Below, one piece after another: positions 18,786 through 60,496 of a DNA stretch of 64,000 bases. Below the pieces are notes generated by a model that saw only the letters and a program-made list of their open reading frames with translations, did not search any database and was not told where the DNA came from. Each line of letters begins with the position of its first letter. Within the stretch, counting starts at the first letter, position 1. Both the position numbers and the translations under genes were made by a program. Source of the DNA: Pseudomonadota bacterium (GTDB lineage Bacteria > Bdellovibrionota > FAC87 > UBA2466); the NCBI GenBank assembly GCA_009927165.1, contig RFNO01000053.1, positions 16,143 to 80,142 of the forward strand, given 5' to 3'.

Positions 18786-20693
18786 ATGGAAAATACTCTT
18801 TTTGTTTTTTACGATTGCCCTGATATTAAGGCGATTTCGTCCAAGTTTGTTGCTCACTCTGTGCTTGCCCACAGTCCTGACCAGCTTTTAGGAGCGATAC
18901 AGAAAGCCCATCAAGAACGCCTTCGCATTGCGTTCTTTGTAACAGAACAAGACTGCCACCGAATTAGTCAGCTCATCGACGCTAGAGCTGCCAAAGAGGA
19001 TTGCCCCAGTTTTGGTTATATCGTCCTCAGTGATAATCCGAAAAATTTCTTTCAAAATCCTCGAGTGCTCTCCCGGTTAATAGACATCATCGAGCCAAAA
19101 AAGATAAAAAAAGAGGCAGAAACCTTTTTCATGAAAATTTGTAAGTTGATTGCTCATCTTTCTGAGATTAATACCACTCGGATCAATTCAACGATGCTTC
19201 AAAAACTCAACGAAATTTTTATTGAATTATCAGCTGAAAGAAATCCCGAAAAATTATTGGTCACGATTCTTTCCAAAGGAATTGAACTTTCAGGCGCTCA
19301 GGGGGGAACGCTTTTTGTGTTGAATGAGGTTGATGGAGATTTGGAATTTCGCTTTAGGATCACTGATTCCGGAGGAAAAGAAATCAACTTTGAGGAAGTA
19401 AATTCCCGAGTTCAGGAAAATAGTGTTTGTGGCTATGTCGCTCTTACTGGAAAAAGTACCAATGTAACTTCTACTCAAGAGACAAAGTTATCTCAAGGGT
19501 TTCCCATGTTTTCGTCGCTTGACCATGTGCAACCCCAAGGAAATCAATCGTTGTTGACAGTTCCTCTACGAGACAGTCGTGGCGATTGTCGAGGAGTCTT
19601 GCAACTGGCCAACAAAGTAAAGTCTAATGGGGAATACGCACCTTTTGATTTAGAAGATGAAAGTTTAGTGAAGTCGTTTAGCACCCAAGCAGCAATTTGT
19701 CTCGAGACGAGTGATGTCTATCGAGATGTTCAAAAGCTTTTCGAAGGTTTTGTTAAAGCTTCTATTACTGCAATCGAGTCCAGAGATCCTAGTACGGGTG
19801 GACATTCGGAACGAGTGGCATCGATGTGTGTAGCTCTCGCTCGAGCTACCACGGAAGTTAGCACAGGAATTTATCGTTCAGTAAAATTCAAAGAGGACGA
19901 AATAAAGGAGTTGGAATACGCTGCTCTTCTCCATGATTTCGGAAAAATTGGTGTCAAAGAACAAGTGTTAGTCAAAGCAAAGAAGCTATATACCCATCAA
20001 TTAGAATCGATAAAAGAACGAATAAATACTTGTAAAGCTGCCGCAAAGATTTGTTTTCTTGAACAGCGTATTCATTTGGGAGAATCCCATCGTCAACAAC
20101 TGGAGCACCAGTACCACGAGAGAGTTCGTCAAGTGGATAACTACTGGAATCTTATTATTGCCGCCAATGAGCCTAATATTTTAAAGAAAGAAAACGAGCA
20201 AATACTGGACCAGATACGCCATGAGCAGCTCTTGCTTCCGGATGGTACACAAGTATCTTTACTCACAGAAGAAGAGTATCTTGCGTTGTCGGTTCAACAG
20301 GGTTCACTCACTGATAGTGAAAGAGAAGAAATTGAGTCACATGTTCGCCATACGTACCAATTTTTAAAAAATATTCCTTGGACTCGCGACTTTAAAAACC
20401 TCACCGAAATCGCTTACTGCCATCACGAAAAACTTGATGGTACTGGATATCCTCGAGGTTTGACGAGCCATGAAATACCCCTGCAATCCAAAATCATGAC
20501 CATCGCAGATATTTTTGACGCACTCACTGCAGCTGACCGTTGGTATAAAGAGGCAGTACCCATCGAACGCGCACTAGAGATATTGGGACAGGAAGTTAAA
20601 GAAGGTAAGCTTGATCCGGTACTATCCGAAATCTTTATCGAAAAAAAGATTTACTCAACTGCCGTACTGCAGAAACTAGGCAAAGTTGCATAG
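18786..20693 (+). CDS. GAF domain / HD-GYP domain protein (probable c-di-GMP phosphodiesterase)
   Basis: HDFGKIGV (HD) and HHEKLDGTGYPRGL (GYP) motifs. Central GAF-like region. N-terminal ~120 aa of unknown fold. Confidence 0.75.
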   Translation: MENTLFVFYDCPDIKAISSKFVAHSVLAHSPDQLLGAIQKAHQERLRIAFFVTEQDCHRISQLIDARAAKEDCPSFGYIVLSDNPKNFFQNPRVLSRLIDIIEPKKIKKEAETFFMKICKLIAHLSEINTTRINSTMLQKLNEIFIELSAERNPEKLLVTILSKGIELSGAQGGTLFVLNEVDGDLEFRFRITDSGGKEINFEEVNSRVQENSVCGYVALTGKSTNVTSTQETKLSQGFPMFSSLDHVQPQGNQSLLTVPLRDSRGDCRGVLQLANKVKSNGEYAPFDLEDESLVKSFSTQAAICLETSDVYRDVQKLFEGFVKASITAIESRDPSTGGHSERVASMCVALARATTEVSTGIYRSVKFKEDEIKELEYAALLHDFGKIGVKEQVLVKAKKLYTHQLESIKERINTCKAAAKICFLEQRIHLGESHRQQLEHQYHERVRQVDNYWNLIIAANEPNILKKENEQILDQIRHEQLLLPDGTQVSLLTEEEYLALSVQQGSLTDSEREEIESHVRHTYQFLKNIPWTRDFKNLTEIAYCHHEKLDGTGYPRGLTSHEIPLQSKIMTIADIFDALTAADRWYKEAVPIERALEILGQEVKEGKLDPVLSEIFIEKKIYSTAVLQKLGKVA

Positions 20694-20755
20694 AGTTATA
20701 GGTTTGGTAAGTGGAAAAATTTTCCTACCTGCGGACAAAAGTTCCCGTCAATCCA

Positions 20756-20783
20756 TTGACAAAAAAATCAGTTGTCGTAATAT
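20756..20783 (+). promoter_or_regulatory. Sigma-70-type promoter candidate (TTGACA-N16-TAATAT) upstream of the FleQ-like EBP gene
   Basis: Near-consensus -35/-10 hexamers with 16-17 nt spacing, about 65 nt upstream of the ATG at 20849. Confidence 0.4.
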
Positions 20784-20848: not shown

Positions 20849-22267
20849 TTGTTTCTGAACAATTTTTCTAACAATTTCAAGAAAAAGTCGGAGCAATCTG
20901 TGTCTATTCGTCGAATCTTGATTTGCGAAGGTGACTCTCAAATATCCAAAAGATATCGAGAGGTTTTAGAGGGTAATGGGTACTGGGTTCAAGAGAGTCC
21001 AGATATTGCTGAGGCAATCAGGTTGGCTACCAAGCAGACATTTCACCTCTGTCTCTGGGGATATCAGGATAGCGAGGGGTTAAACAAACTCCAAAGTTTT
21101 CGCGCTGAGCGTCCAGGTTGTGCCGTCGTTGTTCTAGGATCGGAAAACAGTCCTTCCTCTATTGTGAACTTGATGAGGGCGGGGGCTTCTGATTTTTGGG
21201 ATTCGAACCAAGAAATAGCCGGATTACTGACCGTTATTGAAGAGAATTTAGGGAGAATTATTTCCACTCCCCCTGATTTGAGCCAAAACGAGTTTTCCAT
21301 TCCCCAATTCGTGGGAAGACATCCTAAGATTCTTGAGATTTTCCAGCTCATTATGAGCATTAAAGATACGGACTCAAATGTACTCATTACCGGAGAGAGC
21401 GGAACTGGAAAAGAAGTCGTGGCCAGAGCTATTCACGATTTGAGCCCGAGAAAAAAACTACCCCTAATTGCCGTTAATTGTGGAGCGATACCGGCAACAC
21501 TTCTGGAAAGTGAGCTCTTCGGCCATATGAAGGGAGCCTTTACTGGGGCAACTCAAAACCGTATTGGGCGTTTTCAATTGGCTGGGCAGGGAACTTTATT
21601 TTTGGACGAAATCAGTGATCTGTCTTTGGATTTACAATCCAAAATTCTAAGAGCTATTCAGCAAAAAGTTTATGAACCTGTGGGAAGTGCTCACAGCCTG
21701 TATCTAAACGCCAGAATCATTGCAGCTTCCAATCAAAATCTTGAGACTGCAGTGGGTGAAAAGAGATTCAGAGAGGATCTTTATTATCGACTAAACGTGA
21801 TTCCTATTAATATCCCACCGCTTCGTGATAGGAAGTCAGATATTCCCCTTCTTGTTAAAGCCTTTACCGACAAATTTGCTAGTCAGTATGCGAGAGAAGT
21901 CACAGGGGTATCTGAAGACTCATTGAGAATTCTGATGCAGTACCATTGGCCAGGAAATATTCGTGAGCTAGAGAACTTAATCGAGCGAGTAGTAATCCTT
22001 AAAAGAGATAAGGGAATCATCGACGTTAAAGACTTGCCTATCGAGCATTTTAAACGGGTTACTTTGGATAGGTATATCAGTAGCGTGTCCCTTCCAGATA
22101 ATGGTTTGGACCTAAATGATGCTATCAACGATTTCGAAAATGAATTAATCATACAGGCACTTCAAAAGACACAGGGCAATAAAAACAAAGCTGCTTATCT
22201 TTTGAACTTGAATAGAACTACTTTAGTAGAGAAGTTAAAGAGAAAAGGTCTCAAACTCGCTTGTTAG
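20849..22267 (+). CDS. Sigma-54-dependent transcriptional activator with a degenerate (non-phosphorylatable) receiver-like N-domain, FleQ/FlrA-like
   Basis: AAA+ sigma-54 interaction motifs [29 protein letters not shown]. Fis-type HTH at the C-terminus. N-domain aligns to REC, but the phospho-acceptor Asp and conserved Lys positions are replaced. Confidence 0.7.
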
Positions 22268-23851: not shown

Positions 23852-24658
23852 TTATATTTTTTCCAGAATCCAAAATAGTTTAGTGAGAATAAAATCGAAA
23901 ATCACAATAAGAATTGAGGATGTGACGACCGCATAATTGGTTGCTTGTCCTACTCCCTGGGTTCCCCCTGTGGTCCTGAGTCCATAGTAACAGCCTGTTA
24001 CACTAATTAAGAGACCGAACAAAAATGTTTTTGTGACTCCAAATGTAAAATCTGTCACTTTTAGTGAAGTGATTCCTTCGTAAATATAGAAGTCAGGATT
24101 GATATTGAGCTCAGACATGGAGATGATCATTCCTCCTCCAATTCCCACCAAATCTGCAAAGACAGTCAGCAGGGGGGCCATAAGCAGCATGGCCAGAACC
24201 CTTGGAACCACAATTCTTTTGATGGGGTCTGTTCCTAAAGCGCGAATGGCGTCGATTTGTTGCGTAACATTCATTGAGCCGATTTCAGCCGCGATACCAG
24301 ATCCCACCCGGCCCGCCAACATGAGACAAGTAAGAACGGGTCCCAACTCACGCATGATGGACATGCCAACCACTTTTGGGACATAAAGTTTCCCACCGAA
24401 TCTTTCCAAACCGTATCCAAATTGGAGCGACATAACAAAACCAGTAGATAATGCTGTGATAAAAACCAGAGAACAGGAGCGCAACCCCAATTTATAGCAT
24501 TGCTCAACAAACAATCCAAAATAGAACGGGGGAGTGAATATGGCACGAACTGAGTTTAGAAGAAGTGCAACGCTGCCACCTGCAAAATTCAGGAGATGCC
24601 AGAGCGTTTTAAAAAGCCGCTCAAAAAAATAAAAAATAAAATATTTAGTCTGTTGCAT
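23852..24658 (-). CDS. mlaE: ABC transporter permease MlaE
   Basis: MlaE/Ttg2B family polytopic permease, ~268 aa. Adjacent to mlaF and mlaD. Confidence 0.75.
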   Translation of the reverse strand: MQQTKYFIFYFFERLFKTLWHLLNFAGGSVALLLNSVRAIFTPPFYFGLFVEQCYKLGLRSCSLVFITALSTGFVMSLQFGYGLERFGGKLYVPKVVGMSIMRELGPVLTCLMLAGRVGSGIAAEIGSMNVTQQIDAIRALGTDPIKRIVVPRVLAMLLMAPLLTVFADLVGIGGGMIISMSELNINPDFYIYEGITSLKVTDFTFGVTKTFLFGLLISVTGCYYGLRTTGGTQGVGQATNYAVVTSSILIVIFDFILTKLFWILEKI

Positions 24659-25184
24659 ATTTAAGGGATTTTACAAAAGTTAAAAAATCTTTGGTCTCCT
24701 GAGCTGATATTGCTTTTGGACTCATCAGCGAGAAATCAAAAACACAGCCCCGTTTTTTTACAACAACAATATCAAGCAAAAAGGGTACTCCCTCCGAACT
24801 GGCTCTCACACGACTGTAAAGAGCTTCACTGCCTGAAACAACAAGTTCTTCCTCTCTTTCGATTTTTATGTTTCTCGACCCAATCAAAAGCTCTTTTGTC
24901 AAAACTCGTAAACTCGCCTCTTTGTGTTTGTTACACGAGCTTGTCACTGTGACGGTATTTCCCGATGGGAGCTGGTAAGCCTCATCGCTTTCACCATCAC
25001 TCCCTCTTCTTTGCCACTGACGAGGAGCTGAAAGCTGATAATCGTTTGCTCTTCGAATTTCGCTGCCACCCCCACCCAAAACGGCACATCCTGTAGTGAA
25101 ACTGATGAAGCTCAGTAGCAATAATATCAGAGGATTTAACAAGGTTGATTTCATGAGCAAATTCCTTAAACGGATTCCTCCCAC
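24645..25184 (-). CDS. Hypothetical lipoprotein (probable start at Met11, ~25154)
   Basis: Signal peptide with lipobox FTTGC. First gene of the mla-like cluster on the minus strand. Confidence 0.4.
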   Translation of the reverse strand: MGGIRLRNLLMKSTLLNPLILLLLSFISFTTGCAVLGGGGSEIRRANDYQLSAPRQWQRRGSDGESDEAYQLPSGNTVTVTSSCNKHKEASLRVLTKELLIGSRNIKIEREEELVVSGSEALYSRVRASSEGVPFLLDIVVVKKRGCVFDFSLMSPKAISAQETKDFLTFVKSLKYATD

Positions 25185-25323
25185 TTATCGGAATGTTTTG
25201 ATGAGATTTACAGCATTGAAAAATGCTCAGATCGGAGCTTTGCGGCGAAGCCAAATAGTTGACGGTCTGACAAAATACTTGCTCATCCTGGGCAGGTAAC
25301 AGCAAAAAACAGAGCTGAAACTT

Positions 25324-25339
25324 CGGCACGTACTTTGCT
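25324..25339 (+). promoter_or_regulatory. Sigma-54 (-24/-12) promoter candidate cGGCAC-gtact-TTGCt
   Basis: 9/10 match to TGGCAC-N5-TTGC with correct GG-N10-GC spacing. Intergenic, oriented toward the TPR/EBP operon. Confidence 0.4.
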
Positions 25340-27713
25340 CTTTACTTTAAACGTGCACATTAAACTTCGCGTTAATTATTCAGTTCTTTACGTGTTGAGC
25401 TTCGTGTTTGCCCTGTCTGGACGCCCCGCAACAAATTTCTGGGAATTGAAAGATCTGGATCTCCCCATGCCATTTTGTGAAGGGGTGACCAATCTAGAGG
25501 TGGCCCCTACTTATTTCACAGAAATTGAAAATCAATTAGGCGGAACGCCAGAGTACAATGGCTTGATTCAAAGCTATCATCGCAAAGATTGGGAAAAGTT
25601 AGGCAATGAAATTGCAACTTTTCGCAGGGTATTTGAAACTTCACGACTTCAAGAAGCTGTTGATTTTCTGGAACTCCAGGCCCAATTAGACCAAATTCCA
25701 AATTCAGAGCCGAGTCAGATCAAAAAGTTCGAATCAAAGTTTAGAGAGATTTTACTCCTCTATCCCCATTCAACATTGGCACCTGTCCTATCAGCCTCTT
25801 TGGCGAGTTTCTATCTGAAAAATGGATCTTATGCGAAAGCCCTAGGGCTGTATCAAACAGGAAAGCAGGAGTATCCCTTTCACCCCAGCGCCTGTGTTTT
25901 TCTCCTCGGTAGTGCCGAGTCGCAGTATCTTCTTCACAACTACGAAGATGCCAAAAAAGGATTCAGCCAAGTTCTTCAAAAGTGCGATGCGGCTAGATTG
26001 CAAATGGGCTCTCGAATCAGACTCATCGATATCGACAGAGAATCGGGACAAGACCTCAAAAAAATAGAAAAAGCTTACGAGAAGATCCAAGTGAAAAATG
26101 GCCACTTAATTTCCCGATTCCACCCCGAGCTCCTATTCAATTTAGGAGAACTTAAATACCGTCAAGGAAATTATCCAAGCGCCTCCTTCTATTTCAACGA
26201 GTTTACAAAAGTAGAGGAGCATTTTTCCGAATGCCAAGCTCCCCTTCGGAAGCGACTAGCAGACTTGTCGGTAAAACGAAAAGATAAGCTTCCCGCAGTG
26301 ATTGGTAATTATTTAACCGTAAAAGAAAAATTCCCAAAAAGTGATTGGGGACACTTTTCGAAAGCCCACGCCTTGTTGATGGAATTTAAAGATCTGGACT
26401 CAGCTGAAATTGAGAGGCGTTTAACGGTAGTCGATGAAGAGCTGTTAGCAATTAAGGACGAAAAACTTCGTACGGTTGGTAACATAGAAAAGGGGTTATC
26501 CCTTCTTGAAGCAAGCAATGAAGAAGCTCTTGGTTACCTATCTAAATTGAATGAGCAGAATGGCTTTGATTTGAAGCAAGGAGAAGTGGGATCTTTCATT
26601 CGAGTGAACACGTTACAGGTCCTGGAAAAATTAGCTCGAACCCCGTCAACAGTTTCCCAAGCTGAACGAGATGAGAAGTTACTAGCCCCACTTGAGCATT
26701 CCTACAAAGAATGGTTTGAGGGCACACCCATGGCCAAAAAGGCGCAAAACCTTTACCGAGATCTCATCGTGCAGAGCGCTTTGGAAAATCTTGAGCAAAA
26801 AGGGTTGAAAAAGTCATTGGAGAAGTTAGAGCGCTGGCAGACTTCTTCATTATTTAATCAGCAAAAAGTAGAGTTAAGTACTAAAATGAAACTGGGCGAC
26901 TCTCTTGTCCGTTGGTGGTTTAGCGAAACCAATCGAGATGAGAAAAAATCAGCCGAACGTCTGCTCGATAAAAAAGAAGTCATATCTGCTTTGATTAGTC
27001 CGGAGTATGACCCACTCTGGTTACAGACCTACTTAACAGTAGAAAAACCGCTCGAATTAGAAGTGGCTCTTAAGGCCATGGAAAAACAGAGAAGTATTGC
27101 TTCTGCTTTTAAGCCTAAAGATGGCCTAATTTCCTCCTATCTGGCATTGATGATGGGTAGGGCTTTTCGCGAAGCAAAACAATACCAAAAAAGCGAAGAA
27201 TCGCTTTCAAAAATCACTCACCCCAAACTCAGTGCCCTAAAAAGGCTTGAACAAGTAAAAACTTTTTCGAGTGCGGGTCAGTTTGAAAAAGCCCTCAAAA
27301 TTGGTTTGAGAGGATTAGAAAAAGCAGACCTGGCCTCTTCTGGTGCCTATCTGGACTTAATGAAGCGATCCGTACTTGCCGGGAAAAAATGGGGTCTCTC
27401 GGAAGAAGTTTTAAAATCAGCTCAAAAAAAGGGATTAAAGGAAAAAGATTTAGCTCCTTTCTTAGCAATGTCGGCAAGAGCGGAGCTTGAAAAGTCGAAT
27501 TGTTCGCTATCTATTAAGCGTTATGAAGAGGCTATTAAGATTGCCCCTGATTCCCCTGAGAAATTAGAAAACCGTTTCTATCTGGGTAAGTGTCGGAGCA
27601 AAATGAAAGATACCAAAGGGGCCATCAAGGAGTGGAGAGAAATTGCTTCTCAAAAGGACGAGTTTTGGAGTCCGCTTGCTGAAAATGAAATCAAACTATT
27701 GGAGTCGCCATGA
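25335..27713 (+). CDS. Large TPR-repeat protein with N-terminal hydrophobic segment; the true start is probably downstream of the annotated 25335
   Basis: Multiple TPR-like helical repeats ([18 protein letters not shown]...). Stop overlaps the start of the downstream sigma-54 EBP (ATGA). Confidence 0.55.
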
Positions 27714-28660
27714 CAACGCTGAATTTTCATCACCGAAAGATGCTGATTGCTGATGAGTTGATGGAAAAGCTTTTGAAAACGTCTCGGAGAGCAGCAATGG
27801 CCGACTCTTCAGTCCTTCTCTGCGGAGAAAGTGGGACTGGCAAAGAATTAATTGCTCGTTATATCCACGAGATCAGCAACCGAAGGGAAATGCCATTTAT
27901 CAGTGTGAACTGTGCAGCTATTCCGGAGGGACTTATGGAAGCTGAGCTCTTTGGATATGAAAAGGGAGCTTTCACGGGTGCACTAGTACAAAGAATCGGA
28001 AAATTCGAACGGGCCCAAGGTGGAACACTTTTGTTAGATGAAGTCAGTGAAATGTCATTGCCCTTACAGGCCAAGTTGCTTCGGGTTTTGCAGGAATCGG
28101 AAATAGACCGATTAGGTGGTAAGGGGCCTATCCGAATTAACACAAGAATTATCGCAACCACGAACAAAGATCCTTTTGAATTGATCAGTAAAGGGTTGTT
28201 CCGGGAAGATTTATACTATCGCCTAAATGTATTTAGAATTGAATGCCATCCTCTGCGCGAAAGACGGGAAGCCATTAGAAAACTGTCTCAATTTTTTCTG
28301 GAGAATCTGAGGGAGCGATATGAGCTTCTCAATCAGACTTTCAGTGCCGAAGCCTTGGAAAAGTTAGACAAACATTCATGGCCTGGAAATATAAGAGAGT
28401 TGGCAAATGCCATTGAACGGACCGCCTTAATGACAGAAGAGGCACTCATCGGTCCTGAGCATATCAGTTTCTTACGGTCACACCCGCGCCCAGTTGAAAT
28501 GGAAACAGTGAGTGAAGAATCACTAGCTGCGTTGGAGAAAAGGCACATTGAAAAGATGCTGGAGAAGGTCGATGGAAATCGTACGGAAGCAGCCAGGAAA
28601 CTGGGGATAAGTGTAAGGACTCTGAGAAATAAGCTTAAGGAATATCAAGCTCCATCCTGA
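27710..28660 (+). CDS. Sigma-54-dependent transcriptional activator, activator-only (AAA+ plus Fis HTH, no receiver or sensor domain), PspF-like architecture
   Basis: [25 protein letters not shown]. 316 aa, starting directly in the AAA+ domain. C-terminal HTH. Confidence 0.8.
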
Positions 28661-28734
28661 AAAAAAGTCCACTTAGTATGGAAGGATTTTCCTAACTCAG
28701 GCCGGCAAGGAGCAAATTTTGTGCGAGATTGACC

Positions 28735-28750
28735 TGGCCTTAAGTTTGCA
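28735..28750 (+). promoter_or_regulatory. Sigma-54 promoter TGGCCT-TAAGT-TTGCA upstream of flgB
   Basis: GG-N10-GC spacing and 8/10 core match plus A. 45 nt upstream of the flgB ATG, immediately downstream of the EBP gene. Confidence 0.55.
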
Positions 28751-28794
28751 GCTTTACCTTATCGGCATTTCTCCAAAAAACTTAAGAGATTTCT

Positions 28795-29172
28795 ATGACA
28801 CTGTTCGATAAAACCATTGATACTTTATCAAAGTCTCTAGACCTGCATCTGCTTCGCCAATCAGTAATCAGTGACAATATTGCGAATGCGGAAACACCCG
28901 GGTTTAAAGCCAGAAAAGTCGAATTTGAAAGTGAACTTCAACGAGCTGTTGAAGCTAATGAGACTGGAGTTAGCGAACCGGCCGTATTGTCAGTTGAGGC
29001 AAATATTACTCAAGATCCCCACTCTGAATTGGGTCAGGATCTCAATACAGTAGATATGGATCGCGAGATGGCCGCAATGACGAAAAACGACATTCAGTAT
29101 TCCGCTAATACTCAAATGATTAACAAAAAGTTTACTTTTCTTAAGTATGCCATCGGGGAAGGACGTAACTAA
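28795..29172 (+). CDS. flgB: Flagellar basal-body rod protein FlgB
   Basis: ISDNIANAETPGFKARKVEFE rod-protein N-terminal motif. Confidence 0.85.
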   Translation: MTLFDKTIDTLSKSLDLHLLRQSVISDNIANAETPGFKARKVEFESELQRAVEANETGVSEPAVLSVEANITQDPHSELGQDLNTVDMDREMAAMTKNDIQYSANTQMINKKFTFLKYAIGEGRN

Positions 29173-29615
29173 TGGGTGATTTCTTTCAGTCTATTGATGT
29201 AAGCGCATCAGCTTTAAGTGCAGAACGAATGCGCATGAACACTACCTCAAGTAATTTAGCAAATGCCCAAACTACACGAACACCTGAAGGCGGACCTTAT
29301 CGCCGGAAAGATGTTGTTTTTGAAGCTGAAACGACCCGAAGTTTTGCTTCGGAATTAGCAGGGCAAATGAAAGAAGTTCCTCTACATCGAGTAAAAGTGA
29401 CAGATGTCGTTTCTGATCCGAATCCTCCCAAGTTAGTTTATCAACCCGGACATCCCGATGCCAATCCGGAAGGATTCGTTGCTTATCCTAATATAAATAC
29501 AATGGAAGAAATGGTGAATTTGATCACTGCGAGTCGAACTTATGAAGCCAACGTCACATCGATTAATGTGACCAAAGGCATGATGAATAAGGCCCTTGAA
29601 ATAGGGAGAAAATAA
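29172..29615 (+). CDS. flgC: Flagellar basal-body rod protein FlgC
   Basis: SASALSAERMRMNTTSSNLANAQTT motif. ~147 aa. Confidence 0.85.
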   Translation: MGDFFQSIDVSASALSAERMRMNTTSSNLANAQTTRTPEGGPYRRKDVVFEAETTRSFASELAGQMKEVPLHRVKVTDVVSDPNPPKLVYQPGHPDANPEGFVAYPNINTMEEMVNLITASRTYEANVTSINVTKGMMNKALEIGRK

Positions 29616-29618
29616 TAA

Positions 29619-29921
29619 ATGAATATCTCAAGTATTAGTCCCAATTTAATTCCTAATGAAGCTCCCCTTTCCTCAAGCCCCCCCACGCAAGAGGCAAAAG
29701 GAGAAACATTTACTGAGTTTTTAAGCCGTTCGATTGATCAAGTGAACGACCTTCTGGCAAATGCTGATAAAAGTGCCACTGATCTAGCAACTGGAAAATC
29801 TGAGAATCTACACGATGCCATGATCACTATGGAAAAAGCTGAAACAGCATTCAAGCTTTTGATGCAAGTTAGAAACAAAGTGATTGATGCTTATCAAGAA
29901 GTCATGCGGATGCAGGTTTGA
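29619..29921 (+). CDS. fliE: Flagellar hook-basal body complex protein FliE
   Basis: ~100 aa. FliE-like C-terminus and operon position. Confidence 0.75.
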   Translation: MNISSISPNLIPNEAPLSSSPPTQEAKGETFTEFLSRSIDQVNDLLANADKSATDLATGKSENLHDAMITMEKAETAFKLLMQVRNKVIDAYQEVMRMQV

Positions 29922-29943
29922 TTTTTAGCTATTTAGGAGCGAC

Positions 29944-31731
29944 ATGAACGAGACACTTCAAAGATGGCTTGAGACAGCTCAGTCGTATTTCGAGACTTTC
30001 TCAAGACAGAAGAAAATTCTGGTGGGCGTTACTGCTGCCCTAGTTGTGACTGGCTTGGTCGCACTTACCGTAATGCTTCGACGTGATCCCATGCAGGTTC
30101 TTTACTCGGAACTTCGACCTGAAGAAACTAAAAGTGTTTCTAAAAAGCTCAGCGAACAAAACGTTCCTTACCAAGTCAGTGAAGATGGGGCTACTATTTC
30201 AGTGCCCTCCAGCCAAGTGTATCGAGCTCGAATGGAGTTGGCTAAAGAGGGATTGCCTGGCCAGGATCTCGTGGGATTTGAAAAATTTGATGCTTCAACA
30301 ATTGGGATGTCAAGTTACGTGCAGCGGATTCAGTATGTACGGGCTGTTCAGGGTGAATTGACTCGCTCTATCCAGAGATTGGCTTCCGTTAAGACCGCTA
30401 GAGTTCACATTAGTGTTCCGCCTAAAAAAACTTTTCTTGAAGAAGAAGATCCTCCAAAAGCATCCGTGGTCTTAGAGTTGCGAGCGGGAATGACTCCCTC
30501 AAAGCAAGAAACGGCTGGGATCGCTCATTTAGTGGCCAGTGCCGTTGAAGGTCTAAAAGTTAATCAAATCACAATTGTAGATACTAAAGGAAATTTCCTG
30601 CATCGCCCAGAAGACAGTCTAACTCCAGCTATTCCTTCAGCACTGTTAGAGATGCAGCGCGCCATTGAAGTGGAGTACGAGAGACGTATTGAAGAAATGC
30701 TCACGCCAGTGGTTGGTTTTGGTAAAGTACGTGCCAAAGTAACTGCAGAAATTGATCCGTCGAGAGTAAATACAACCGAAGAGACATTTGACTCCGAAAA
30801 AGCAGTCCCCCGGAGTGTGACAAAAATGGATGAAAGCAATTCCGGTTCCCGCCCTAACCCCATGGGAATTCCTGGCAGTCGATCAAACTTGCCCGGTACT
30901 GAAGTCAACAATCCCCCGTCACCCGTTGCAACCAGTTCAAATGAAAAAAATTCCAGCAACACTACCTATGCCATTCCGAGAAAAGTTCAAGTCGTCGATA
31001 AGCCCAGTGGGTCTATCAAGAGGTTAACGATAGCGGTGGTGGTTGACGGTTATTACAATAAAGCTCCTAACGCTACAACTGAGACCTTTGCTCCCCGAAA
31101 TGAGGAAGAGCTCCGTCGAATTCAGGATCTGGTTGCAAATTCGGTTGGTTTTGATTCCGAGCGGAGAGACAGCATCACAGTAAGCTCCATGCCGTTTAAC
31201 ACTAATGAAATCAAGGACACCGATGAAAAGCAGACTCCGGCTGTCACATGGCAAAACTTAGCCCCGCAAATGCTTAGAAATGGTCTTGTAGCCCTTGTTT
31301 TCCTAGCATTCTTCTTCTTAGTGATGCGGCCTTTCTTAAAATGGATGAGCAGTTCCGAATCAGCAAACAATAGGAACAAAGACGGAACTCTGGTTCCTCG
31401 AACAGTGGGTGAGATAGAAGCAGCGGTAAAGGCTGCCAGCGAATCGGGAGTTCAAGCCGATCAGGTTGCCGAAGCTTTGATGGCACAGGCCAATGATGCC
31501 TCAGGCAGCGCAGGAACCAACCCAGAAATTGCCGCACAAATGGCAGCCAACGATGAAGATGATAACGTGATTCGGGGAGTCTTTGGTGATACTGCTGAGA
31601 AAAAAGAGGAGCGTCAGCTGAAAAAGCTGATCGTCGAGCAGATAGAAAAATCACCCAAGAAGAGCTTCAGAATTTTACAGGATTGGATCGAAGAAGATGA
31701 TGAAATGAAGGCCTCTGAGGTAAGTGCATGA
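29944..31731 (+). CDS. fliF: Flagellar M-ring protein FliF
   Basis: N-terminal TM, conserved FliF/YscJ region (GQDLVGFEKF...RIQYVRAVQGELTRSI), second TM near the C-terminus. Confidence 0.85.
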   Translation: MNETLQRWLETAQSYFETFSRQKKILVGVTAALVVTGLVALTVMLRRDPMQVLYSELRPEETKSVSKKLSEQNVPYQVSEDGATISVPSSQVYRARMELAKEGLPGQDLVGFEKFDASTIGMSSYVQRIQYVRAVQGELTRSIQRLASVKTARVHISVPPKKTFLEEEDPPKASVVLELRAGMTPSKQETAGIAHLVASAVEGLKVNQITIVDTKGNFLHRPEDSLTPAIPSALLEMQRAIEVEYERRIEEMLTPVVGFGKVRAKVTAEIDPSRVNTTEETFDSEKAVPRSVTKMDESNSGSRPNPMGIPGSRSNLPGTEVNNPPSPVATSSNEKNSSNTTYAIPRKVQVVDKPSGSIKRLTIAVVVDGYYNKAPNATTETFAPRNEEELRRIQDLVANSVGFDSERRDSITVSSMPFNTNEIKDTDEKQTPAVTWQNLAPQMLRNGLVALVFLAFFFLVMRPFLKWMSSSESANNRNKDGTLVPRTVGEIEAAVKAASESGVQADQVAEALMAQANDASGSAGTNPEIAAQMAANDEDDNVIRGVFGDTAEKKEERQLKKLIVEQIEKSPKKSFRILQDWIEEDDEMKASEVSA

Positions 31732-32750
31732 AGGAAATGAGAAACGGTCAATTAACTGGGATTGAGAAAATCGCAGTGCTAATGAATGTCATTGGCAAAG
31801 AAAAGTCTGGTGAGCTGTTGAAGCAAATGAAAGACTCAGATGTTCGCCGACTGCTGAAAGTGATGAGCAGCATGAAGAAGGCACCCGTGCAGCTTATCAA
31901 TGATGTACTTAAAGAGTACCTTTATAAATTAAGTGAAAAAGATGAAATTATTTTCGAAGAAAACCTTTCTGAACCAGAATTGATAAGTCAGGTTCTTGGC
32001 TCAGAACGCGCAAAGCAAATTTTCGGAGGCAACAGAGCGGTCAATCTGGTTGAGCGAAAGAGTCTGACCGTTTTGGAAACGGTAGATCCAAAGACTCTTG
32101 CAGAGTTTCTTGTGGATGAGCATCCTCAAACAATTGCATTAATTATCGCCCACATGGATGTGGAACAACAAATCACCATGATTAAAGCTCTTCCCGATAA
32201 TCTCAGGCCAGAAATTGTCACTCGAATGGCTACCCTTGAATATGTATCTCCTGAGAAAATTGACGAATTAGACGAAGTTCTTAAAAGAGATCTCATTGGC
32301 AAGGCAGTAGGAAACAAGAATCAATTTGGCGGAGTGCCAGCTATTGCGGATCTCATTAATAATCTCGATAAAAGAACAATGACTTCTTTAATGACTCGCC
32401 TTGAAGATAAAGATCCAATACTGGCTGTAGAGATAAAGCAACATATCTTTAGTTTTACGGATGTTATTAAGATCGATAATCGAGGCCTCCAATTGGTCCT
32501 TAGGGACGTTCCAAATCAAACTCTGCTTTTGGCCCTGAAAAATGCGCCTGAAGAACTAAGAGAAAAGCTTTATGAAGCAATGTCTGAGCGGGCAGCAGCC
32601 ATGTTGAAAGATGACTTAGCAGCGTTAGGTCCACAGCGAGTATCAGACGTTGAAAAGGCTCAGAAAGAAATTGTGACTGTAGTCAAACGACTAGAAAAAG
32701 AAGGGAAAATTATCATTGGCGTGGGTGAAGAGTCAGATATGGTCCCCTGA
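31728..32750 (+). CDS. fliG: Flagellar motor switch protein FliG
   Basis: LTGIEKIAVLMNVIGKEKSGELLKQM start and conserved FliG middle and C domains. Confidence 0.85.
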   Translation: MKEMRNGQLTGIEKIAVLMNVIGKEKSGELLKQMKDSDVRRLLKVMSSMKKAPVQLINDVLKEYLYKLSEKDEIIFEENLSEPELISQVLGSERAKQIFGGNRAVNLVERKSLTVLETVDPKTLAEFLVDEHPQTIALIIAHMDVEQQITMIKALPDNLRPEIVTRMATLEYVSPEKIDELDEVLKRDLIGKAVGNKNQFGGVPAIADLINNLDKRTMTSLMTRLEDKDPILAVEIKQHIFSFTDVIKIDNRGLQLVLRDVPNQTLLLALKNAPEELREKLYEAMSERAAAMLKDDLAALGPQRVSDVEKAQKEIVTVVKRLEKEGKIIIGVGEESDMVP

Positions 32751-33573
32751 CCAAATAAGGGAACAAGGGGAGTTTGTTCGTTTTCGGGCAGCCGATGTGC
32801 GCACTTTGCCTCAGTTTTCGGAGGCTGTAGCTCAGAAGGCTTCTGCTTGGAGCGGTGAAGTGTCCCAATCAACTGGCGAACATTTTCGTATGGCTGGCGA
32901 GTATTGGGATGGCCTCATGAATGATCCCATGTTCCGAGAGCGTTTTGATGCTTTGGTCGAGAAAGAAGTAAGGTCTCGCCTGTTGAAACGTTTGGAACAT
33001 CATGAAACTGAAGTTTTACCTGAAATTTCAAAAGAAGCCATGAAGCAAGGATATCAAGAGGGAAAAAATTTAGCCCATGAGCAGCTCGAGGAAGAAATCA
33101 ATAAGATCGAACAAAATCTGACTTATACTTGGCAGGAAAAAGTTGGCGAACTAGAGAAAAGCAAAACTGAAGCCTCCGCGCTATTAGATTCTCTTGTTGC
33201 TGAATGGAAAAATCAGCGTGAATCCCTTTTGCACAGCCATGAGCGCGAATGGTGCCAAGCTATGTTGCATCTCATGAAAAGATTCCAGATGGAAAAGAGT
33301 GAGAGTTATGGAAAAGCTCTTGAAATTTGGATGGCTGAAGCGATACCGGAATTTGTAACCAAGAGCCCTGTCACTGTTTGTGTGCCGGACTATGAATGGG
33401 AAAAATACGCCGATTGTCTTGGAAAAAAAGAAAGTGAAGGAAAATGGCATCTGGTGCGAGACTCAAAATTAATGCCTGGACAAATTCGATTTGAAGCTGG
33501 GGCCGGCGGGGCGATTTTCGATTCCGGAAATAATTACCAAAAATTAGTGGATTGGTTGGAAACAATCAGATGA
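32716..33573 (+). CDS. fliH: Flagellar assembly/export protein FliH (start uncertain)
   Basis: Position between fliG and fliI. Coiled-coil. C-terminal ...GGAIFDSGNNYQKLVDWLE resembles the FliH/ATP-synthase-b-like C-domain. Confidence 0.55.
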   Translation: MAWVKSQIWSPDQIREQGEFVRFRAADVRTLPQFSEAVAQKASAWSGEVSQSTGEHFRMAGEYWDGLMNDPMFRERFDALVEKEVRSRLLKRLEHHETEVLPEISKEAMKQGYQEGKNLAHEQLEEEINKIEQNLTYTWQEKVGELEKSKTEASALLDSLVAEWKNQRESLLHSHEREWCQAMLHLMKRFQMEKSESYGKALEIWMAEAIPEFVTKSPVTVCVPDYEWEKYADCLGKKESEGKWHLVRDSKLMPGQIRFEAGAGGAIFDSGNNYQKLVDWLETIR

Positions 33574-34870
33574 ATCTAGAACAATTCTGCAAACAAATCC
33601 GAGATGAGTCGTTTGTAACATTTTGTGGACGTGTGACGAAAGTTAGAAGAGATTCGGTTCGGGTCTTCGTACCTAACGCAAAAGTGGGCTCGGTGGTTAT
33701 GGTTCAGGGGAGACAGAAAGAAATTCCGTTAGAAATCGTTAGTTTAGATCCAGAAGGTCATGTCGCAATGCCTTTGGATGAATTAAACAGTGTTCAGTTA
33801 GGTGACCTCGTTACACTTCGCGAAGAACAAGCAGTTATCCCCGTTGGAAAGGAACTGCTTGGCCAAGTCGTTGATTCACTCTGTAGGCCACTTGAGACAA
33901 ATAGGAAGCTCAATTTACCAGATTCCATTTCGCTTTATGGTGAATACTTAAACCCAATGGATCGAACGATTATTCGGGAACCTATCGACTTGGGCGTGAG
34001 GACAATAAACGCCCTTCTTACTTGTGGTCTTGGCCAAAGAGCAGGAATTTTCGCTGGTTCAGGAGTGGGTAAAAGTGTTCTGTTAGGGATGATGGCTAGA
34101 TTTACTTCTGCAGATGTTGTGGTTGTGGGACTTATCGGAGAACGAGGCAAAGAGGTACGAGAGTTTATAGAGCACGAGTTGGGAGAAGAAGGCAGAAAAA
34201 AAAGTGTGACTGTCGTCGAAACAGCTGAGAAATCTCCCGTCAGGCGTGTCCGTGGAGCATATGTTAGTACTGCTATAGCGGAATATTTTCGAAAACAAGG
34301 TCTACAAGTGTTGCTCTTAATGGATTCTCTTACTCGCTTTGCGATGGCACAGCGAGAAATCGGTATGGCGGCGGGCGAGCCACCCACCAGTAAAGGTTAT
34401 ACGCCTAGTGTATTTTCGGGAATTTCCCGACTGGTTGAGCGTGCGGGAAATTTCGGGGCCGAAGGCAGCATCACTGGTCTTTATACAGTTTTGGTTGAGG
34501 GAGATGACTTAGAGGATCCGGTTGCAGACAGTGCCGGTCAATCTTGGACGGCCACTTGGTATTATCCCGAAAAATAGCAAACAAAGGACAATATCCAGCA
34601 ATCGATATCTTGCAGAGTGTGAGCCGAGTAATGGATCAAGTTACCGAAAAGACTCACTCCACATCGGCACGAAGGGTAAAGCAAATCTTAGCTCGCTTTC
34701 AGGATAACGAAGATGCAATTAACTTAGGTCTCTATAATAGAGGGAGTGACCAGACAATTGACGAAGCGATTGAGAAAGAACCTATTATCCTCGATTTCCT
34801 CAAACAAGGAAGAGACGAGCACTCATCATTTTTTGATTCGAAAAGTAAACTCTTGGAAATTGCTAGATGA
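33552..34870 (+). CDS. fliI: Flagellum-specific ATPase FliI, interrupted by a -1 frameshift near 34533-34537 (reading frame continues in ORF 34544..34870); possible pseudogene or sequencing error
   Basis: Walker A GSGVGKS and Walker B LLLMDSLTRFA in the first ORF. The FliI C-terminus DGHLVLSRKIANKGQYPAIDILQSVSR is in the next frame. A single missing C in gcc(c)gg would restore ...VADSARSILDGH... Confidence 0.8.
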
Positions 34871-35301
34871 GATTTAAATTCCGGCTCGAAAAAATTGCGA
34901 ATTATTTTACGCAGAAGGAATTTGCAAAAAAAATTGAGTTAGCAAAAGTGTTGAGAGATTTGGCTCAGAGCAAAAGCCTAAAAGAATCAATTGAAAGAGA
35001 AAACCTAGGGTTGTTAAAAAACCAAAGCCAAAAATCACAAGTAGGAGTCGAGTGGTTAAAGCTCTTCATGGATCGTATCGACCACAACATCATTTCACTT
35101 GAGAAATTAAAAGTTGTGATTGGAGAACAGCAAACAGTGGTTGATCTAAAAAGAAAAGAGCTCAACATTCTGAGCGCTAAAAAGAAAGCTCTCGAAACCA
35201 TGCGCGATAAAAAGATGGCGGAATTCAAAGTGATTGCAAATCGAAACGCACAGAAGAAGTTGGACGAAAGCTTTGAGCTATTAAAGACAGAAAAAAAATG
35301 A
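34867..35301 (+). CDS. fliJ: Flagellar export protein FliJ
   Basis: MRFKFRLEKI... N-terminus typical of FliJ. All-coiled-coil, ~144 aa, directly after fliI. Confidence 0.6.
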   Translation: MRFKFRLEKIANYFTQKEFAKKIELAKVLRDLAQSKSLKESIERENLGLLKNQSQKSQVGVEWLKLFMDRIDHNIISLEKLKVVIGEQQTVVDLKRKELNILSAKKKALETMRDKKMAEFKVIANRNAQKKLDESFELLKTEKK

Positions 35302-35915
35302 ACAGACTTTTTACATTTATCCTATTATGTTTCGCTGGATTACTTCCCGCTCATCTCAGTGCAGATGTATCAAAAGTGGAAGAAATCGGGAATCAGAAAA
35401 AACTTCTCGAACAGAGAGAGCAGGAACTCAATGCTCGGGAGGCGACACTAAAGGAGCAGATTGCAAGCCATGTTCGCGTCATACAGGACCTTCAGGAAAG
35501 ATTTAGCAAGGACAAGCGCGCCATGGAGGAGAAGCTGAATCAGCGAGAAGTTGAGTTGAATAAAAAGCTGATCGAAAAAGAGCAGGAGCTCAAAAAAAAG
35601 ACGATTGAACTTGAGAGTGTACGAGACCATCGCGCCAAAAGTTATCGACTGATCTACGAAAAAATGGAGCCAAAAAATGCGGCAAAGATTCTGGAGGATA
35701 TCGATGCTTCACTTGCATTGCAGATTTTAGCCGACATGAGGGAACAAAAGGCCGCTGAAATTTTATCTAAAATGAACCCAGAGAAGGCGAGAAGTATTAC
35801 TGAGTACGGGTTTGGAAAAAGACAGTTGGCCTCGCCAGCTGGAGGCAACCAAAAGATTTCTCAAAAGGTCAATGAAGTAAACGAGAAGAGTCCGATAGCT
35901 CCCATCGGAGAGTAG
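35298..35915 (+). CDS. Flagellar protein with MgtE_N-like domain (FlbB/MotE/YlxF-like)
   Basis: Signal peptide, coiled coil, then PKNAAKILEDIDASLALQILADMREQKAAEILSKMNPEKARSI (MgtE N-terminal-like). Same position as ylxF/flbB in Firmicute and spirochaete fla operons. Confidence 0.55.
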   Translation: MNRLFTFILLCFAGLLPAHLSADVSKVEEIGNQKKLLEQREQELNAREATLKEQIASHVRVIQDLQERFSKDKRAMEEKLNQREVELNKKLIEKEQELKKKTIELESVRDHRAKSYRLIYEKMEPKNAAKILEDIDASLALQILADMREQKAAEILSKMNPEKARSITEYGFGKRQLASPAGGNQKISQKVNEVNEKSPIAPIGE

Positions 35916-35945
35916 TCCAAAAATCAAAGAAAGGAGGTAAAAACA

Positions 35946-37244
35946 ATGCTACATAATATTTATTCAAGCAGTCTTAATCTGTCTGCTTTGTCCGTTATGG
36001 GTGGTGAAAGTCTGGGCTTGCCTGAGACAGGAGAATTCGATTTTTTGAATTATCTTTTGGGCCTTCAGGTAACGAGTTCGGAAAGCTCAACTGAATTAGA
36101 TGGATTGATGTCTGGATTGAACGCTAAGAATGGTCAGGAGTCTAAGCTTGATTCTAATGAAGCCCTTTTGGAACTTTTTGATCGAAAGGCTTCAAGAGAT
36201 TCGTCGGTGCTTATTGGGCAACCGATGATGGGACCGGTTCAGCCTCAAGTTGCTCCCTTAACTGTTCAAACAGTTCAAAAAATGGAATCTGCTGAAAGCA
36301 CAATGGGCCGTCTTGATGACAAGATTCCCGTTATTAAATCTTATAAAGAAGATAAACAGCAGGTTTTGGGTCAAAATGTACTTGAAGATCCTATCGGTCA
36401 GCTTGCCTTCAACAAGGCGATGTATGATCAGAACCGGAGCTCAGTAAATAGCGGTCCAAGATCCAAGGACGCCGATCCACAGGTTGTGTTCGACCAAAAG
36501 GAAAGAATGATTCAATCCTATATGGGCTCGAAAAAACAACCAGAGGCTAATGCCGATAGTCCAGAGTTAGCCATGGGAAAAGTGACGATTAACGAGACTC
36601 GGTTCGACAATGAAGAAGCAGACACCATCGACGGCCCTAAGCGACAAACTCATCGATCAGAAGAGTTTGATGTCGTTTCTGATACATCGGCACCTATGCT
36701 ACAAAATAACGTAGTTACGGTGAACTCGAAGGTCACAGGGCTGGAGAAAGTGAGCCATCATACGGTTCCTGAGCTCTTCCAAAAAGTCGAATCAATGGTC
36801 CATCACGGCGGAGGAAAACTGACGGTTACTTTGACACCACCCGATTTGGGACAGGTCGAGATACACGTCAGTACCAAAGGCAAGAATGTTGAGGTTTCTG
36901 TGAAATCAGATAACGATTTTGCAAAAGCCGCCATTGAAAGCCAAGTCGCTGATCTCCAGCAGTCTTTGCAGAATCAGGATCTTAATTTGAGTAAAATTGA
37001 GGTCCACGTCAGCAGAGAAATGGAGCCATCATTTTTAGAAAATCAATATGCTCAGTTTTCTGGAAATGGAAGTCTGTACCAGCAGTCACAAAGCTCGCGT
37101 CAGGATTCAGCAAAGAATCCCTGGCAAGTGAATCACCTGGATAGTTCTCATCCACGGAATCGGATGACTACCACATCAGCTGTTTCGACAGCTGCTTTGC
37201 ATGGGGTTAACCAAGGAACTGGACGAGTTGATATCCGCATCTAG
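35946..37244 (+). CDS. fliK: Flagellar hook-length control protein FliK
   Basis: Low-complexity N-terminal region and conserved C-terminal Flg_hook domain (GGGKLTVTLTPPDLGQVEIHVS...). Confidence 0.7.
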   Translation: MLHNIYSSSLNLSALSVMGGESLGLPETGEFDFLNYLLGLQVTSSESSTELDGLMSGLNAKNGQESKLDSNEALLELFDRKASRDSSVLIGQPMMGPVQPQVAPLTVQTVQKMESAESTMGRLDDKIPVIKSYKEDKQQVLGQNVLEDPIGQLAFNKAMYDQNRSSVNSGPRSKDADPQVVFDQKERMIQSYMGSKKQPEANADSPELAMGKVTINETRFDNEEADTIDGPKRQTHRSEEFDVVSDTSAPMLQNNVVTVNSKVTGLEKVSHHTVPELFQKVESMVHHGGGKLTVTLTPPDLGQVEIHVSTKGKNVEVSVKSDNDFAKAAIESQVADLQQSLQNQDLNLSKIEVHVSREMEPSFLENQYAQFSGNGSLYQQSQSSRQDSAKNPWQVNHLDSSHPRNRMTTTSAVSTAALHGVNQGTGRVDIRI

Positions 37245-37253
37245 AGAGAAACC

Positions 37254-38608: not shown

Positions 38609-38637
38609 CTGAGGCTGCCACCTCAGTTTTAACAAAA
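38609..38637 (+). terminator. Weak hairpin plus T-tract (ctgagg-ctgcca-cctcag-tttt) between the small ORF and flgE; possible attenuator or processing site
   Basis: 6-bp stem followed by TTTT. Low stability. Confidence 0.25.
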
Positions 38638-38710
38638 ACTCCCAAAGCTGGCCCGTGTTTTCGGTGCTTCCACACCTAAAACGGAAGCTTTGGATTATCT
38701 AGGAGGAAAC

Positions 38711-51054: not shown

Positions 51055-51065
51055 CGCTCTTTCCT

Positions 51066-60307: not shown

Positions 60308-60496
60308 GCGTCTCTCCTTGTACCACTCGTTGCTGAGCCCGCCGGGAACTCAGCTCCACCCAAGTTGAGATTGCAAAGCGTATGCCCCAAGTCTACCGGA
60401 ATTATCAGTGCGTAATGATTGTAAGATGGCCCGACTTAGTGAAGCAGGAGTGACGTTTTAGGGCGCCATCGGGGCCGAAGCGGTCACTGATTAAGG

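Follow-up and report, generated by a model that had tools for sequence, protein, structure and literature searches.

The 64,000-nt stretch of Bdellovibrionota DNA considered here (the window; position numbers count from its first letter) contains two coupled genes directly upstream of a large flagellar operon. The first open reading frame (ORF; 25335–27713, + strand, 792 aa) encodes a protein of tetratricopeptide repeats (TPRs). The second (27710–28660, + strand, 316 aa) encodes a short sigma-54 enhancer-binding protein (EBP) with an AAA+ domain and a Fis-type helix-turn-helix (HTH) and no sensory domain. The TGA stop codon of the TPR gene and the ATG start codon of the EBP gene overlap as ATGA at 27710–27713, and a GGAG is placed 5 nt ahead of that ATG. 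No HisKA or HATPase_c domain was found in any ORF of at least 120 aa in the window, and an Rfam scan of the window returned no match. The two ORFs, their overlap, the composition of the EBP, and the lack of a sensor kinase had all been described in a first-pass annotation of this DNA and agree with the present results.

A profile built from 12 homologues of the TPR protein led to 15 genome loci (L001–L015), labelled as Bdellovibrionota, as Pseudobdellovibrionaceae, or as unclassified or broadly labelled metagenome-assembled genomes (MAGs). Three further loci (L016–L018) were obtained through distant EBP homologues, for a total of 18. The TPR and short EBP genes are adjacent in all 18 loci, and flgB is the next gene in each of the 17 loci that reach that far, which, for the loci that could be checked, answers with yes the question, raised by the first-pass annotation, of whether the pair always precedes flgB. 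Most loci share a wider order as well: a gene for a GAF-HD-GYP protein, one for an EBP with a receiver-like N-terminal domain (REC-EBP), an Mla operon on the other strand, then the TPR gene, the short EBP gene, and flgB. In the window, the region upstream of the TPR gene is occupied on the opposite strand by a lipoprotein-MlaE-MlaF-MlaD operon, beyond which lie the REC-EBP gene and then the GAF-HD-GYP gene. In L018, glycosyltransferase genes replace the Mla context, and TPR, EBP, and flgB are still together. The ATGA overlap is kept in the window, L001–L003, L014, and L016; the other loci have a gap of ~5 to 107 nt. Conservation of the module extends over a phylum-level group, and no description of it was found in the literature searched.

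The operon downstream of the pair (28795–39988, + strand) has the conserved order flgB, flgC, fliE, fliF, fliG, fliH, fliI, fliJ, a flgY-like gene, fliK, flgD, and flgE, with a small "Flagellar_put" ORF between flgD and flgE; the identities of flgB and flgC were confirmed. The flgY-like gene (35298–35915, + strand), between fliJ and fliK, encodes a FlgY/FlbB/MotE-like E-ring protein with a signal peptide, a long coiled coil, and a C-terminal MgtE_N domain (Pfam). The first-pass annotation had likened the operon to class III flagellar genes, an analogy that fails in one respect: the operon holds the earliest structural genes. For this reason, the EBP cannot be equated with the FlrC tier alone.

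Two further observations concern flagellar genes of the window. The fliI gene is split into two overlapping ORFs (33552–34577 and 34544–34870) by an apparent 1-nt deletion (34525–34580) in the region encoding DSVRSILDGH; fliI is intact, with 429–438 aa, in L016–L018. The split reflects either a mistake in sequencing or assembly or a genuine frameshift in the gene for the flagellar export ATPase. A motA-motB stator pair (50263–51890, − strand; motB at 50263–51054) lies ~10 kb away from the flagellar operon and follows ftsQ-like, ftsA, and ftsZ genes, and no sigma-54 motif or strong sigma-28 motif was seen upstream of it in the scans made.

In our opinion, the balance of evidence leans modestly toward one explanation, in which the locus forms a Bdellovibrionota module that serves both the regulation and the structure of the flagellum, its two coupled genes having different jobs in different compartments. 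This assessment is a joint one, covering the role of the TPR protein, the role of the EBP, the control of the latter by its synthesis, and a possible off-switch.

A TPR solenoid with an export signal

Pfam yields only TPR-type matches for the 792-aa protein, or 786 aa (25353–27713, + strand) when counted from its probable start codon, discussed below. A Sec-type signal peptide occupies approximately residues 7–29 of the 792-aa ORF. All full-length homologues (alignment A1) have a charged n-region, a hydrophobic core, and a small-residue cleavage-type motif, with a mean Kyte-Doolittle value of 1.9–2.6 over the 12-residue core, and the same type of N-terminus was read in 43 further representatives of the family. 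Apart from the signal peptide, the full-length homologues contain no second hydrophobic segment. Four cysteines (C48, C187, C217, and C300) are invariant. Because the signal peptide and the four cysteines recur in every full-length homologue, the TPR protein is almost certainly periplasmic, as far as its primary structure can tell.

This result bears directly on the regulatory role that the first-pass annotation had proposed for the TPR protein, that of an anti-activator or scaffold for the EBP. In such a model, the TPR protein would be cytoplasmic and bind the EBP, translational coupling would set the stoichiometry of the two, and the flagellar genes would be gated in this way. The start/stop overlap and the adjacency of the pair in 18 of 18 loci are real, the EBP lacks a sensor domain, and TPR domains often mediate protein-protein contacts. 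However, the EBP is a soluble, DNA-binding ATPase of the cytoplasm, which an exported protein cannot hold as PspA holds PspF, and every full-length member of the family has the Sec signal peptide, the four invariant cysteines, and no other membrane segment. Moreover, the overlap is lost in most of the distant relatives, the TPR protein bears no similarity to PspA, and the EBP scores under the cutoffs of the PspF models of NCBIfam. Anti-activation by the TPR protein is therefore very improbable, and its specifically PspA-like form was rejected because the protein carries a signal peptide and invariant cysteines and because the overlap is not conserved. Of the circuit originally proposed, the sigma-54 flagellar cascade with an activator-only EBP and no kinase is supported; the TPR protein as its gate is not.

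The TPR family is narrow, well-defined, and distinct. A HMMER scan of 1.8 billion representatives yielded ~55 full-length members (as clusters at 50% identity) and 74 proteins at E<1e-30, the weaker matches being generic multi-stretch TPR proteins; a second, word-indexed homologue search with alignment added zero members. The named members are all from Bdellovibrionota or unclassified MAGs, and the 10 representatives that were looked up are all metagenomic. An AlphaFold2 model of the protein (pLDDT 87.6) consists of a single all-α solenoid with ~40 helices. Its low-confidence parts are the signal peptide (residues 1–29), a loop (586–591), and the last residues, and ~40 non-helical residues separate the signal peptide from the first repeat. 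The best full-length TM-score against the PDB was obtained with 9hmf_K, a 773-residue chain of the Campylobacter jejuni motor scaffold (0.38/0.38), the length of which equals that of PflA as modelled, residues 16–788 (PMC12222027).

E-ring proteins of the FlgY/FlbB/MotE type have an MgtE_N domain, and their genes lie between fliJ and fliK (PMC13023049); their periplasmic TPR partners include PflA, MotC/MotK, FlcB, and CC_2058 (PMC13023049; PMC11870540). Proteins with many TPRs that are encoded in or next to the flagellar clusters of FlgY-bearing genomes have been termed potential PflA homologues (PMC11870540) and are found in ~52% of flagellated species (PMC11870540; PMC13023049). By the definition of Feng et al. 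(PMC11870540), the TPR protein of the window belongs among them, having many TPRs, a place in a flagellar cluster, and a FlgY-bearing genome, and lacking the mid-protein transmembrane segment and β pair of PflB. With PflA of Campylobacter and Helicobacter, MotK/MotC, FlcB, and CC_2058 it shares a signal peptide, a long TPR superhelix, a gene at a flagellar cluster, and a genome encoding a FlgY-type E-ring protein, and with PflA also a length of ~790 aa and the architecture of a ~16-repeat TPR superhelix (PMC12222027). Once exported, it would serve as a spoke or scaffold working with the FlgY-type E-ring; in our analysis, it most likely belongs with the PflA/MotK/FlcB-type accessories of the flagellar motor and does not regulate the EBP. 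The differences from PflA are also clear. The model contains no β-strands and lacks the N-terminal β-sandwich, the part of PflA that binds PflB, together with the linker, which weighs against this assignment; the TM-score is just 0.38, sequence similarity to PflA is not detectable, and no PflB-like gene was seen in the window. Because the β-sandwich is missing and no specific similarity was detected, the protein is a candidate functional analogue of PflA, not a demonstrated member of the class.

The motors of Bdellovibrio bacteriovorus have an E-ring and a 12-fold inner-membrane-proximal ring of unassigned composition. The TPR protein is a candidate for this ring, and as such differs from an earlier one, the B. 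bacteriovorus TPR protein WP_011165745.1, which is described as ~1000 aa long and was proposed to be PflA-like (Chaban 2018).

A different possibility is a general envelope function for the TPR protein, of the BamD, CpoB, LapB, or PorW kind; its position would then be historical, and only the EBP would be flagellar. Its NCBIfam matches, to YbgF/CpoB, PorW, BamD, and LapB, are of this type, but they are far under the cutoffs and span only 2–4 repeats. Structure searches give generic TPR matches only, and the divergent neighbour is the Mla operon; against this, the TPR gene and that of the flagellar EBP have a conserved sigma-54 promoter in common, the two stay with flgB in L018, where the Mla context is replaced, and the family is confined to one flagellated phylum. 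We regard a general envelope role as quite unlikely, and a motor role remains the preferred one.

The activators and their promoters

In the short EBP (27710–28660, + strand), Pfam identifies Sigma54_activat (PF00158; residues 14–178, E 7e-67), AAA_lid_14, and a C-terminal Fis-type HTH_8 (PF02954; residues 272–312, E 8e-15). Just 13 residues precede the AAA+ domain, a feature conserved across the family. The Walker A, GAFTGA, Walker B, and HTH motifs are intact, as in a sigma-54 activator AAA+ domain, and all catalytic motifs, including LLLDE, are invariant in the 14 aligned members (A2), which share 54–70% identity. Nearly all of the 120 listed relatives, in the same range of identity, are ~300–325 aa long. 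Since the family is uniformly of this length and its catalytic motifs are invariant, the EBP should be active once made. As it has neither a sensor domain nor a kinase, it is probably controlled by its own synthesis, i.e., gated by the amount made. FlbD is its best NCBIfam match, and NifA, AtoC, and others are also among the top ones, all far under their cutoffs. The FlbD match (NF050807; 363.4 bits against a cutoff of 750) spans model positions 116–440 only, and the PspF models (TIGR02974 and NF008622) give 259.7 against 443.55 and 215.2 against 529, respectively. The closest solved relatives are FlrC, FleQ, ZraR, and NtrC1 (E 1.6e-73 for Vibrio cholerae FlrC); the EBP lacks the receiver and cognate kinase of two-component regulators such as FlrC, FleR, and FlgR. 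We therefore consider it a receiver-less relative of the FlrC/FlbD-type activators.

Two sigma-54-type promoters frame the gene pair. The first, CGGCACGTACTTTGCT (25324–25339, + strand), precedes the TPR gene, matches 11 of 12 consensus positions, and has its −12 C at 25338, which predicts a transcription start at ~25350. The second, TGGCCTTAAGTTTGCA (28735–28750, + strand), ends 45 nt before the flgB ATG (28795) and has a predicted start at ~28761. The sigma-54 pattern used (TGGCAC-N5-TTGC, with GG and GC dinucleotides 10 nt apart) is not enriched in the window, where 49 matches at up to 2 mismatches compare with 45 expected. It is the conservation of the two sites across loci, i.e., phylogenetic footprinting and not window counts, that makes both credible. 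Thus, CGGCA(C/T)-N5-TTGCT precedes the TPR gene and TGG(C/T)NN-N5-TTGC(A/T) precedes flgB in all 17 loci holding the respective region (with AGG in L004 at the latter site). At both promoters, the −24 GG and −12 TTGC are kept and spacers and flanks vary. Both promoters had been noted in the first-pass annotation and are upheld by this conservation. A terminator scan found no + strand hairpin between the EBP stop codon and flgB, so that read-through from the EBP gene into flgB is possible; the hairpins found on the minus strand within the TPR gene are no more than chance predicts.

The first-pass annotation had also pointed out that the predicted start of the TPR ORF (25335) falls inside the promoter motif and that the true start must lie downstream, which proved right. 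An in-frame GTG at 25353 aligns with the annotated starts of the homologues. The window shares with 10 of the first 14 loci holding the region (L001, L002, L004, and L006–L012), and with L016 and L017, an in-frame GTG located 2–6 nt past the predicted transcription start. The remaining loci have an ATG at approximately +9 or +10 or a start far downstream (L005 and L015). Because of the alignment with homologues and this recurrence, the probable start is GTG 25353, and the mRNA is probably leaderless or nearly so. The GTG has no Shine-Dalgarno sequence and looks like the start of a leaderless GUG-initiated mRNA made from a sigma-54 promoter.

Each of the two promoters is associated with a conserved upstream element of its own. 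Ahead of the TPR promoter, ~65 nt before its −24 GG, is a block, TTGACGGTCTGACA (25259–25272; denoted TTGACGGNCTGACA below), conserved in related loci as TTGACG(G/C)N(C/G)(T/C)GACA with diverging flanks; it is the sole exact copy in the window. Ahead of the flgB promoter, 43–45 nt before its −24 GG, is an inverted repeat, GGAAGGATTTTCC (28680–28692), with the consensus GG(A/C)A-N5-T(T/G)CC. It occupies this position in nearly all related loci, with tandem double copies in L004, L006, L007, L010, L011, and L016–L018. Neither TTGACG-type motifs nor GGAAA-N5-TTTCC, a related 15-nt pattern, are enriched above chance in the window. All four promoter and site motifs are conserved; which protein binds each of them we infer from their arrangement. 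The short EBP would bind the inverted repeat or repeats just downstream of its own gene and open the promoter of the 11-kb flgB–flgE operon, and this is its most likely site of action. The block at the TPR promoter may act as an enhancer for a different EBP. Since the conserved block upstream of the pair's sigma-54 promoter, TTGACGGNCTGACA, differs from the element at flgB, another EBP would be needed, and the arrangement would amount to a cascade from one sigma-54 promoter to another.

The need for a second EBP would disappear if the short EBP activated both its own promoter and that of flgB. Both promoters are of the sigma-54 type and are at most 3.5 kb apart, and, there being no terminator, the pair and flgB could form one long transcript; yet the upstream elements are unrelated (TTGACGGNCTGACA versus GGAA-N5-TTCC), and positive feedback alone could not set itself going. 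Such autoregulation is, in our opinion, improbable.

For the cascade that we prefer, the best candidate for the second EBP, to which synteny and site logic alone point, is REC-EBP (20849–22267, + strand; probable start GTG 20900), a REC-AAA+-HTH sigma-54 activator whose synteny is conserved in related loci and which would form an upper tier with a logic like that of FleQ or FlrA. Its Pfam matches are Response_reg (weak, 35.6 bits), Sigma54_activat, and HTH_8. Alignment with CheY and NtrC shows that, in REC-EBP of the window and in four orthologues, D57 is missing and K109 is replaced. Because the phospho-acceptor Asp and the conserved Lys are absent, REC-EBP would need no kinase either. A search for a sigma-54 promoter ahead of its gene found none; instead, there is a sigma-70-like promoter, TTGACA-N16-TAATAT (20747–20783, boxes at 20756–20783, + strand), the best sigma-70 match in the region (10/12). 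Its −35 box is embedded in a palindrome, GTCAATCCATTGAC (20747–20760), kept as (G/C)(T/C)CAAT-NN-ATTGAC in all 10 loci holding the region. This 14-bp palindrome, GTCAAT-NN-ATTGAC, resembles the FleQ box, GTCaNTAAAtTGAC, and thereby suggests autoregulation. Just upstream of the promoter are tandem inverted repeats, GGAAAAATTTTCC (20713–20725) and GGACAAAAGTTCC (20733–20745), which match in type the site that precedes the flgB promoter. Tandem sites are found at the same position in L001, L002, and L013 and a single site in L003; they are missing in more distant loci. In the proposed circuit, REC-EBP would activate the promoter of the TPR-EBP pair, and the short EBP would activate the flgB–flgE promoter and feed back on the REC-EBP promoter.

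A GAF-HD-GYP protein, a putative cyclic di-GMP phosphodiesterase, is encoded at 18786–20693 (+ strand) and is syntenic with REC-EBP in most loci. It is a possible source of cyclic di-GMP input to the flagellar circuit.

The short EBP may alternatively be gated post-translationally by an unlinked factor, either a protein similar to FliX or to FleN/FlhG that signals the state of assembly, or a small ligand such as cyclic di-GMP bound by the AAA+ domain, as happens in FleQ, control by synthesis then being secondary. Precedents exist in FlbD-FliX and in FleQ with FleN and cyclic di-GMP; FlbD is the best NCBIfam match of the EBP, and the phosphodiesterase gene just mentioned lies ~5 kb upstream in most loci. 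However, the conserved module contains no candidate partner gene, its sole unannotated neighbour being the lipoprotein gene heading the Mla operon, and no ligand site was identified from the sequence. Gating of this kind is unlikely, in our view, yet a good deal less so than the alternatives weighed above, and it can coexist with the sigma-54 cascade.

An overlapping antisense FliA-type site

On the opposite strand, the stretch from the flgB sigma-54 promoter to the flgB start codon contains a match to the FliA (sigma-28) promoter, TTAAGTTT-N11-GCCGATAA (28759–28785, − strand), with 15 of the 16 positions of the consensus scored (TAAAGTTT-N11-GCCGATAA). Shuffling predicts 0.005 such matches per window at 15/16 and 0.085 for scores of at least 14/16. 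At the latter level, the window and eight of the first 15 loci (L001, L002, L005, L006, L010–L012, and L014; ~22 kb each) each have a single match in the whole sequence, and it falls at this place; L016 also has 15/16 here, again as its only match of that level, and L017 has 13/16. The attack-phase promoters mapped in B. bacteriovorus have the consensus TTAAG-N16-CCGATA (PMC3627812), which the antisense site fits as TTAAG-N15-CCGATAA. Unlike those promoters, it points away from flgB into the EBP gene and overlaps a sigma-54 promoter; none of the papers searched described a FliA promoter in such an overlapping, opposed arrangement. The predicted antisense start (~28752) is inside the −12 element of the flgB sigma-54 promoter, so the two promoters should exclude each other. 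The antisense strand has no conserved ORF and no Rfam match there. The site may be an off-switch, predicted from its sequence and position. Late or attack-phase FliA activity would shut the early tier down both through promoter overlap and through RNA antisense to the EBP gene.

A more far-reaching version of this idea is that the EBP is gated wholly at the nucleic-acid level, being switched on by the sigma-54 cascade and off by the overlapping FliA-dependent promoter and its antisense RNA. A mutually exclusive sigma-54/sigma-28 toggle would then commit the cell from basal-body building to the attack phase, and the near-leaderless TPR gene, transcribed together with that of the EBP, would supply the PflA-like ring that cryo-ET reveals in Bdellovibrio motors. 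We put this forward as a tentative and rather doubtful proposal.

Several points weigh against the explanation favoured here. The antisense FliA-type site scores 12–13/16 in L004 and L015, is replaced by GCCGACA or CCGAAA variants in L003, L007, and L018, and has no match in L008 and L013, and its −35 box lies partly within the flgB ribosome-binding region, a possible reason for some of its conservation. The assignment of motifs to EBPs could be reversed or involve an EBP encoded elsewhere, and the GGAA-N5-TTCC sites upstream of REC-EBP in close relatives fit either assignment. A GTG only 2–6 nt from the transcription start is an unusual place for translation to begin. Finally, where transcription starts, which DNA is bound, and where the proteins are located are predictions.

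Other parts of the window contain related motifs. A sigma-28-like sequence, TAAA-N15-CCGATAA (25185–25210, − strand; 12/16), in which CTTATCGG is conserved in many loci, precedes the lipoprotein-MlaE-MlaF-MlaD operon and would put an envelope-lipid transporter under the attack-phase sigma factor. The lipoprotein ORF (24645–25184, − strand, 179 aa) probably starts at ATG 25154 (MKSTLL...FTTGC lipobox). Elsewhere, a Ser/Thr kinase with an FHA domain adjoins von Willebrand A and small TPR proteins (57624–59033, 59069–60307, and 56740–57498, respectively, all − strand), and a sigma-54-like motif, GGGCATACGCTTTGCA (60372–60387, − strand), lies upstream of the von Willebrand A gene.

Relation to known flagellar regulators

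The short EBP resembles FlrC, FleR, and FlgR of Vibrio, Pseudomonas, and Campylobacter in its AAA+ core with GAFTGA, its Fis-type HTH, and its presumed target, a sigma-54 promoter of flgB-type rod and hook genes. It differs in lacking a receiver and a cognate kinase, for which reason it is not assigned to FlrC/FleR, and its target operon adds fliF, fliG, and fliHIJ. In Vibrio, these genes belong to the tier above FlrC. REC-EBP, for its part, shares with FleQ and FlrA a receiver-like N-terminal domain without the phospho-acceptor Asp, an AAA+ domain, an HTH, and a sigma-70-type promoter, although Pfam recognizes its N-terminal domain as Response_reg, not as the FleQ domain.

The best NCBIfam match of the short EBP, FlbD of Caulobacter crescentus, is likewise a kinase-less flagellar EBP. 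Acting at inverted-repeat ftr sites, FlbD activates sigma-54 promoters and represses an early promoter; here, one type of repeat is located upstream of both the flgB and the REC-EBP promoters, and the proposed feedback of the short EBP on the latter would be much like the action of FlbD at ftr sites, which is positive as well as negative. FlbD, however, keeps an N-terminal receiver, of which the short EBP has none, and no FliX-like gene was seen. Because its score is under the cutoff and it has no receiver, the EBP is not an FlbD. PspF and HrpR/S, controlled by PspA and HrpV, respectively, are likewise EBPs that consist of AAA+ and HTH alone and carry no sensory domain in cis. Here, the neighbour is an exported solenoid of TPRs, in place of a PspA-type coiled coil in the cytoplasm, and negative control in trans is not indicated; the sub-threshold score and the lack of a PspA-type partner exclude the EBP from PspF as well. 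Rhodobacter sphaeroides FleT is a sensor-less flagellar EBP encoded just upstream of fliE–fliJ and is not known to have a DNA-binding domain, which the short EBP keeps. Our analysis thus suggests a circuit whose mode of action is similar to that of the Vibrio and Pseudomonas sigma-54 cascades and to that of Caulobacter FlbD, with an EBP that is a member of none of the FlrC/FleR, FlbD, and PspF groups.

Flagellar regulation in Bdellovibrionota is almost undescribed: the literature searched covers FliA as the attack-phase sigma factor and contains nothing on a sigma-54 tier. The module provides concrete promoters and sites for such an early tier and possibly a sigma-54/sigma-28 promoter toggle. 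A natural flagellar EBP that lacks all sensory input also bears on how assembly checkpoints may operate without a two-component system. Current concepts are not overturned by these results; rather, the known themes of sigma-54 cascades, PflA-like spokes, and FliA feedback are extended.

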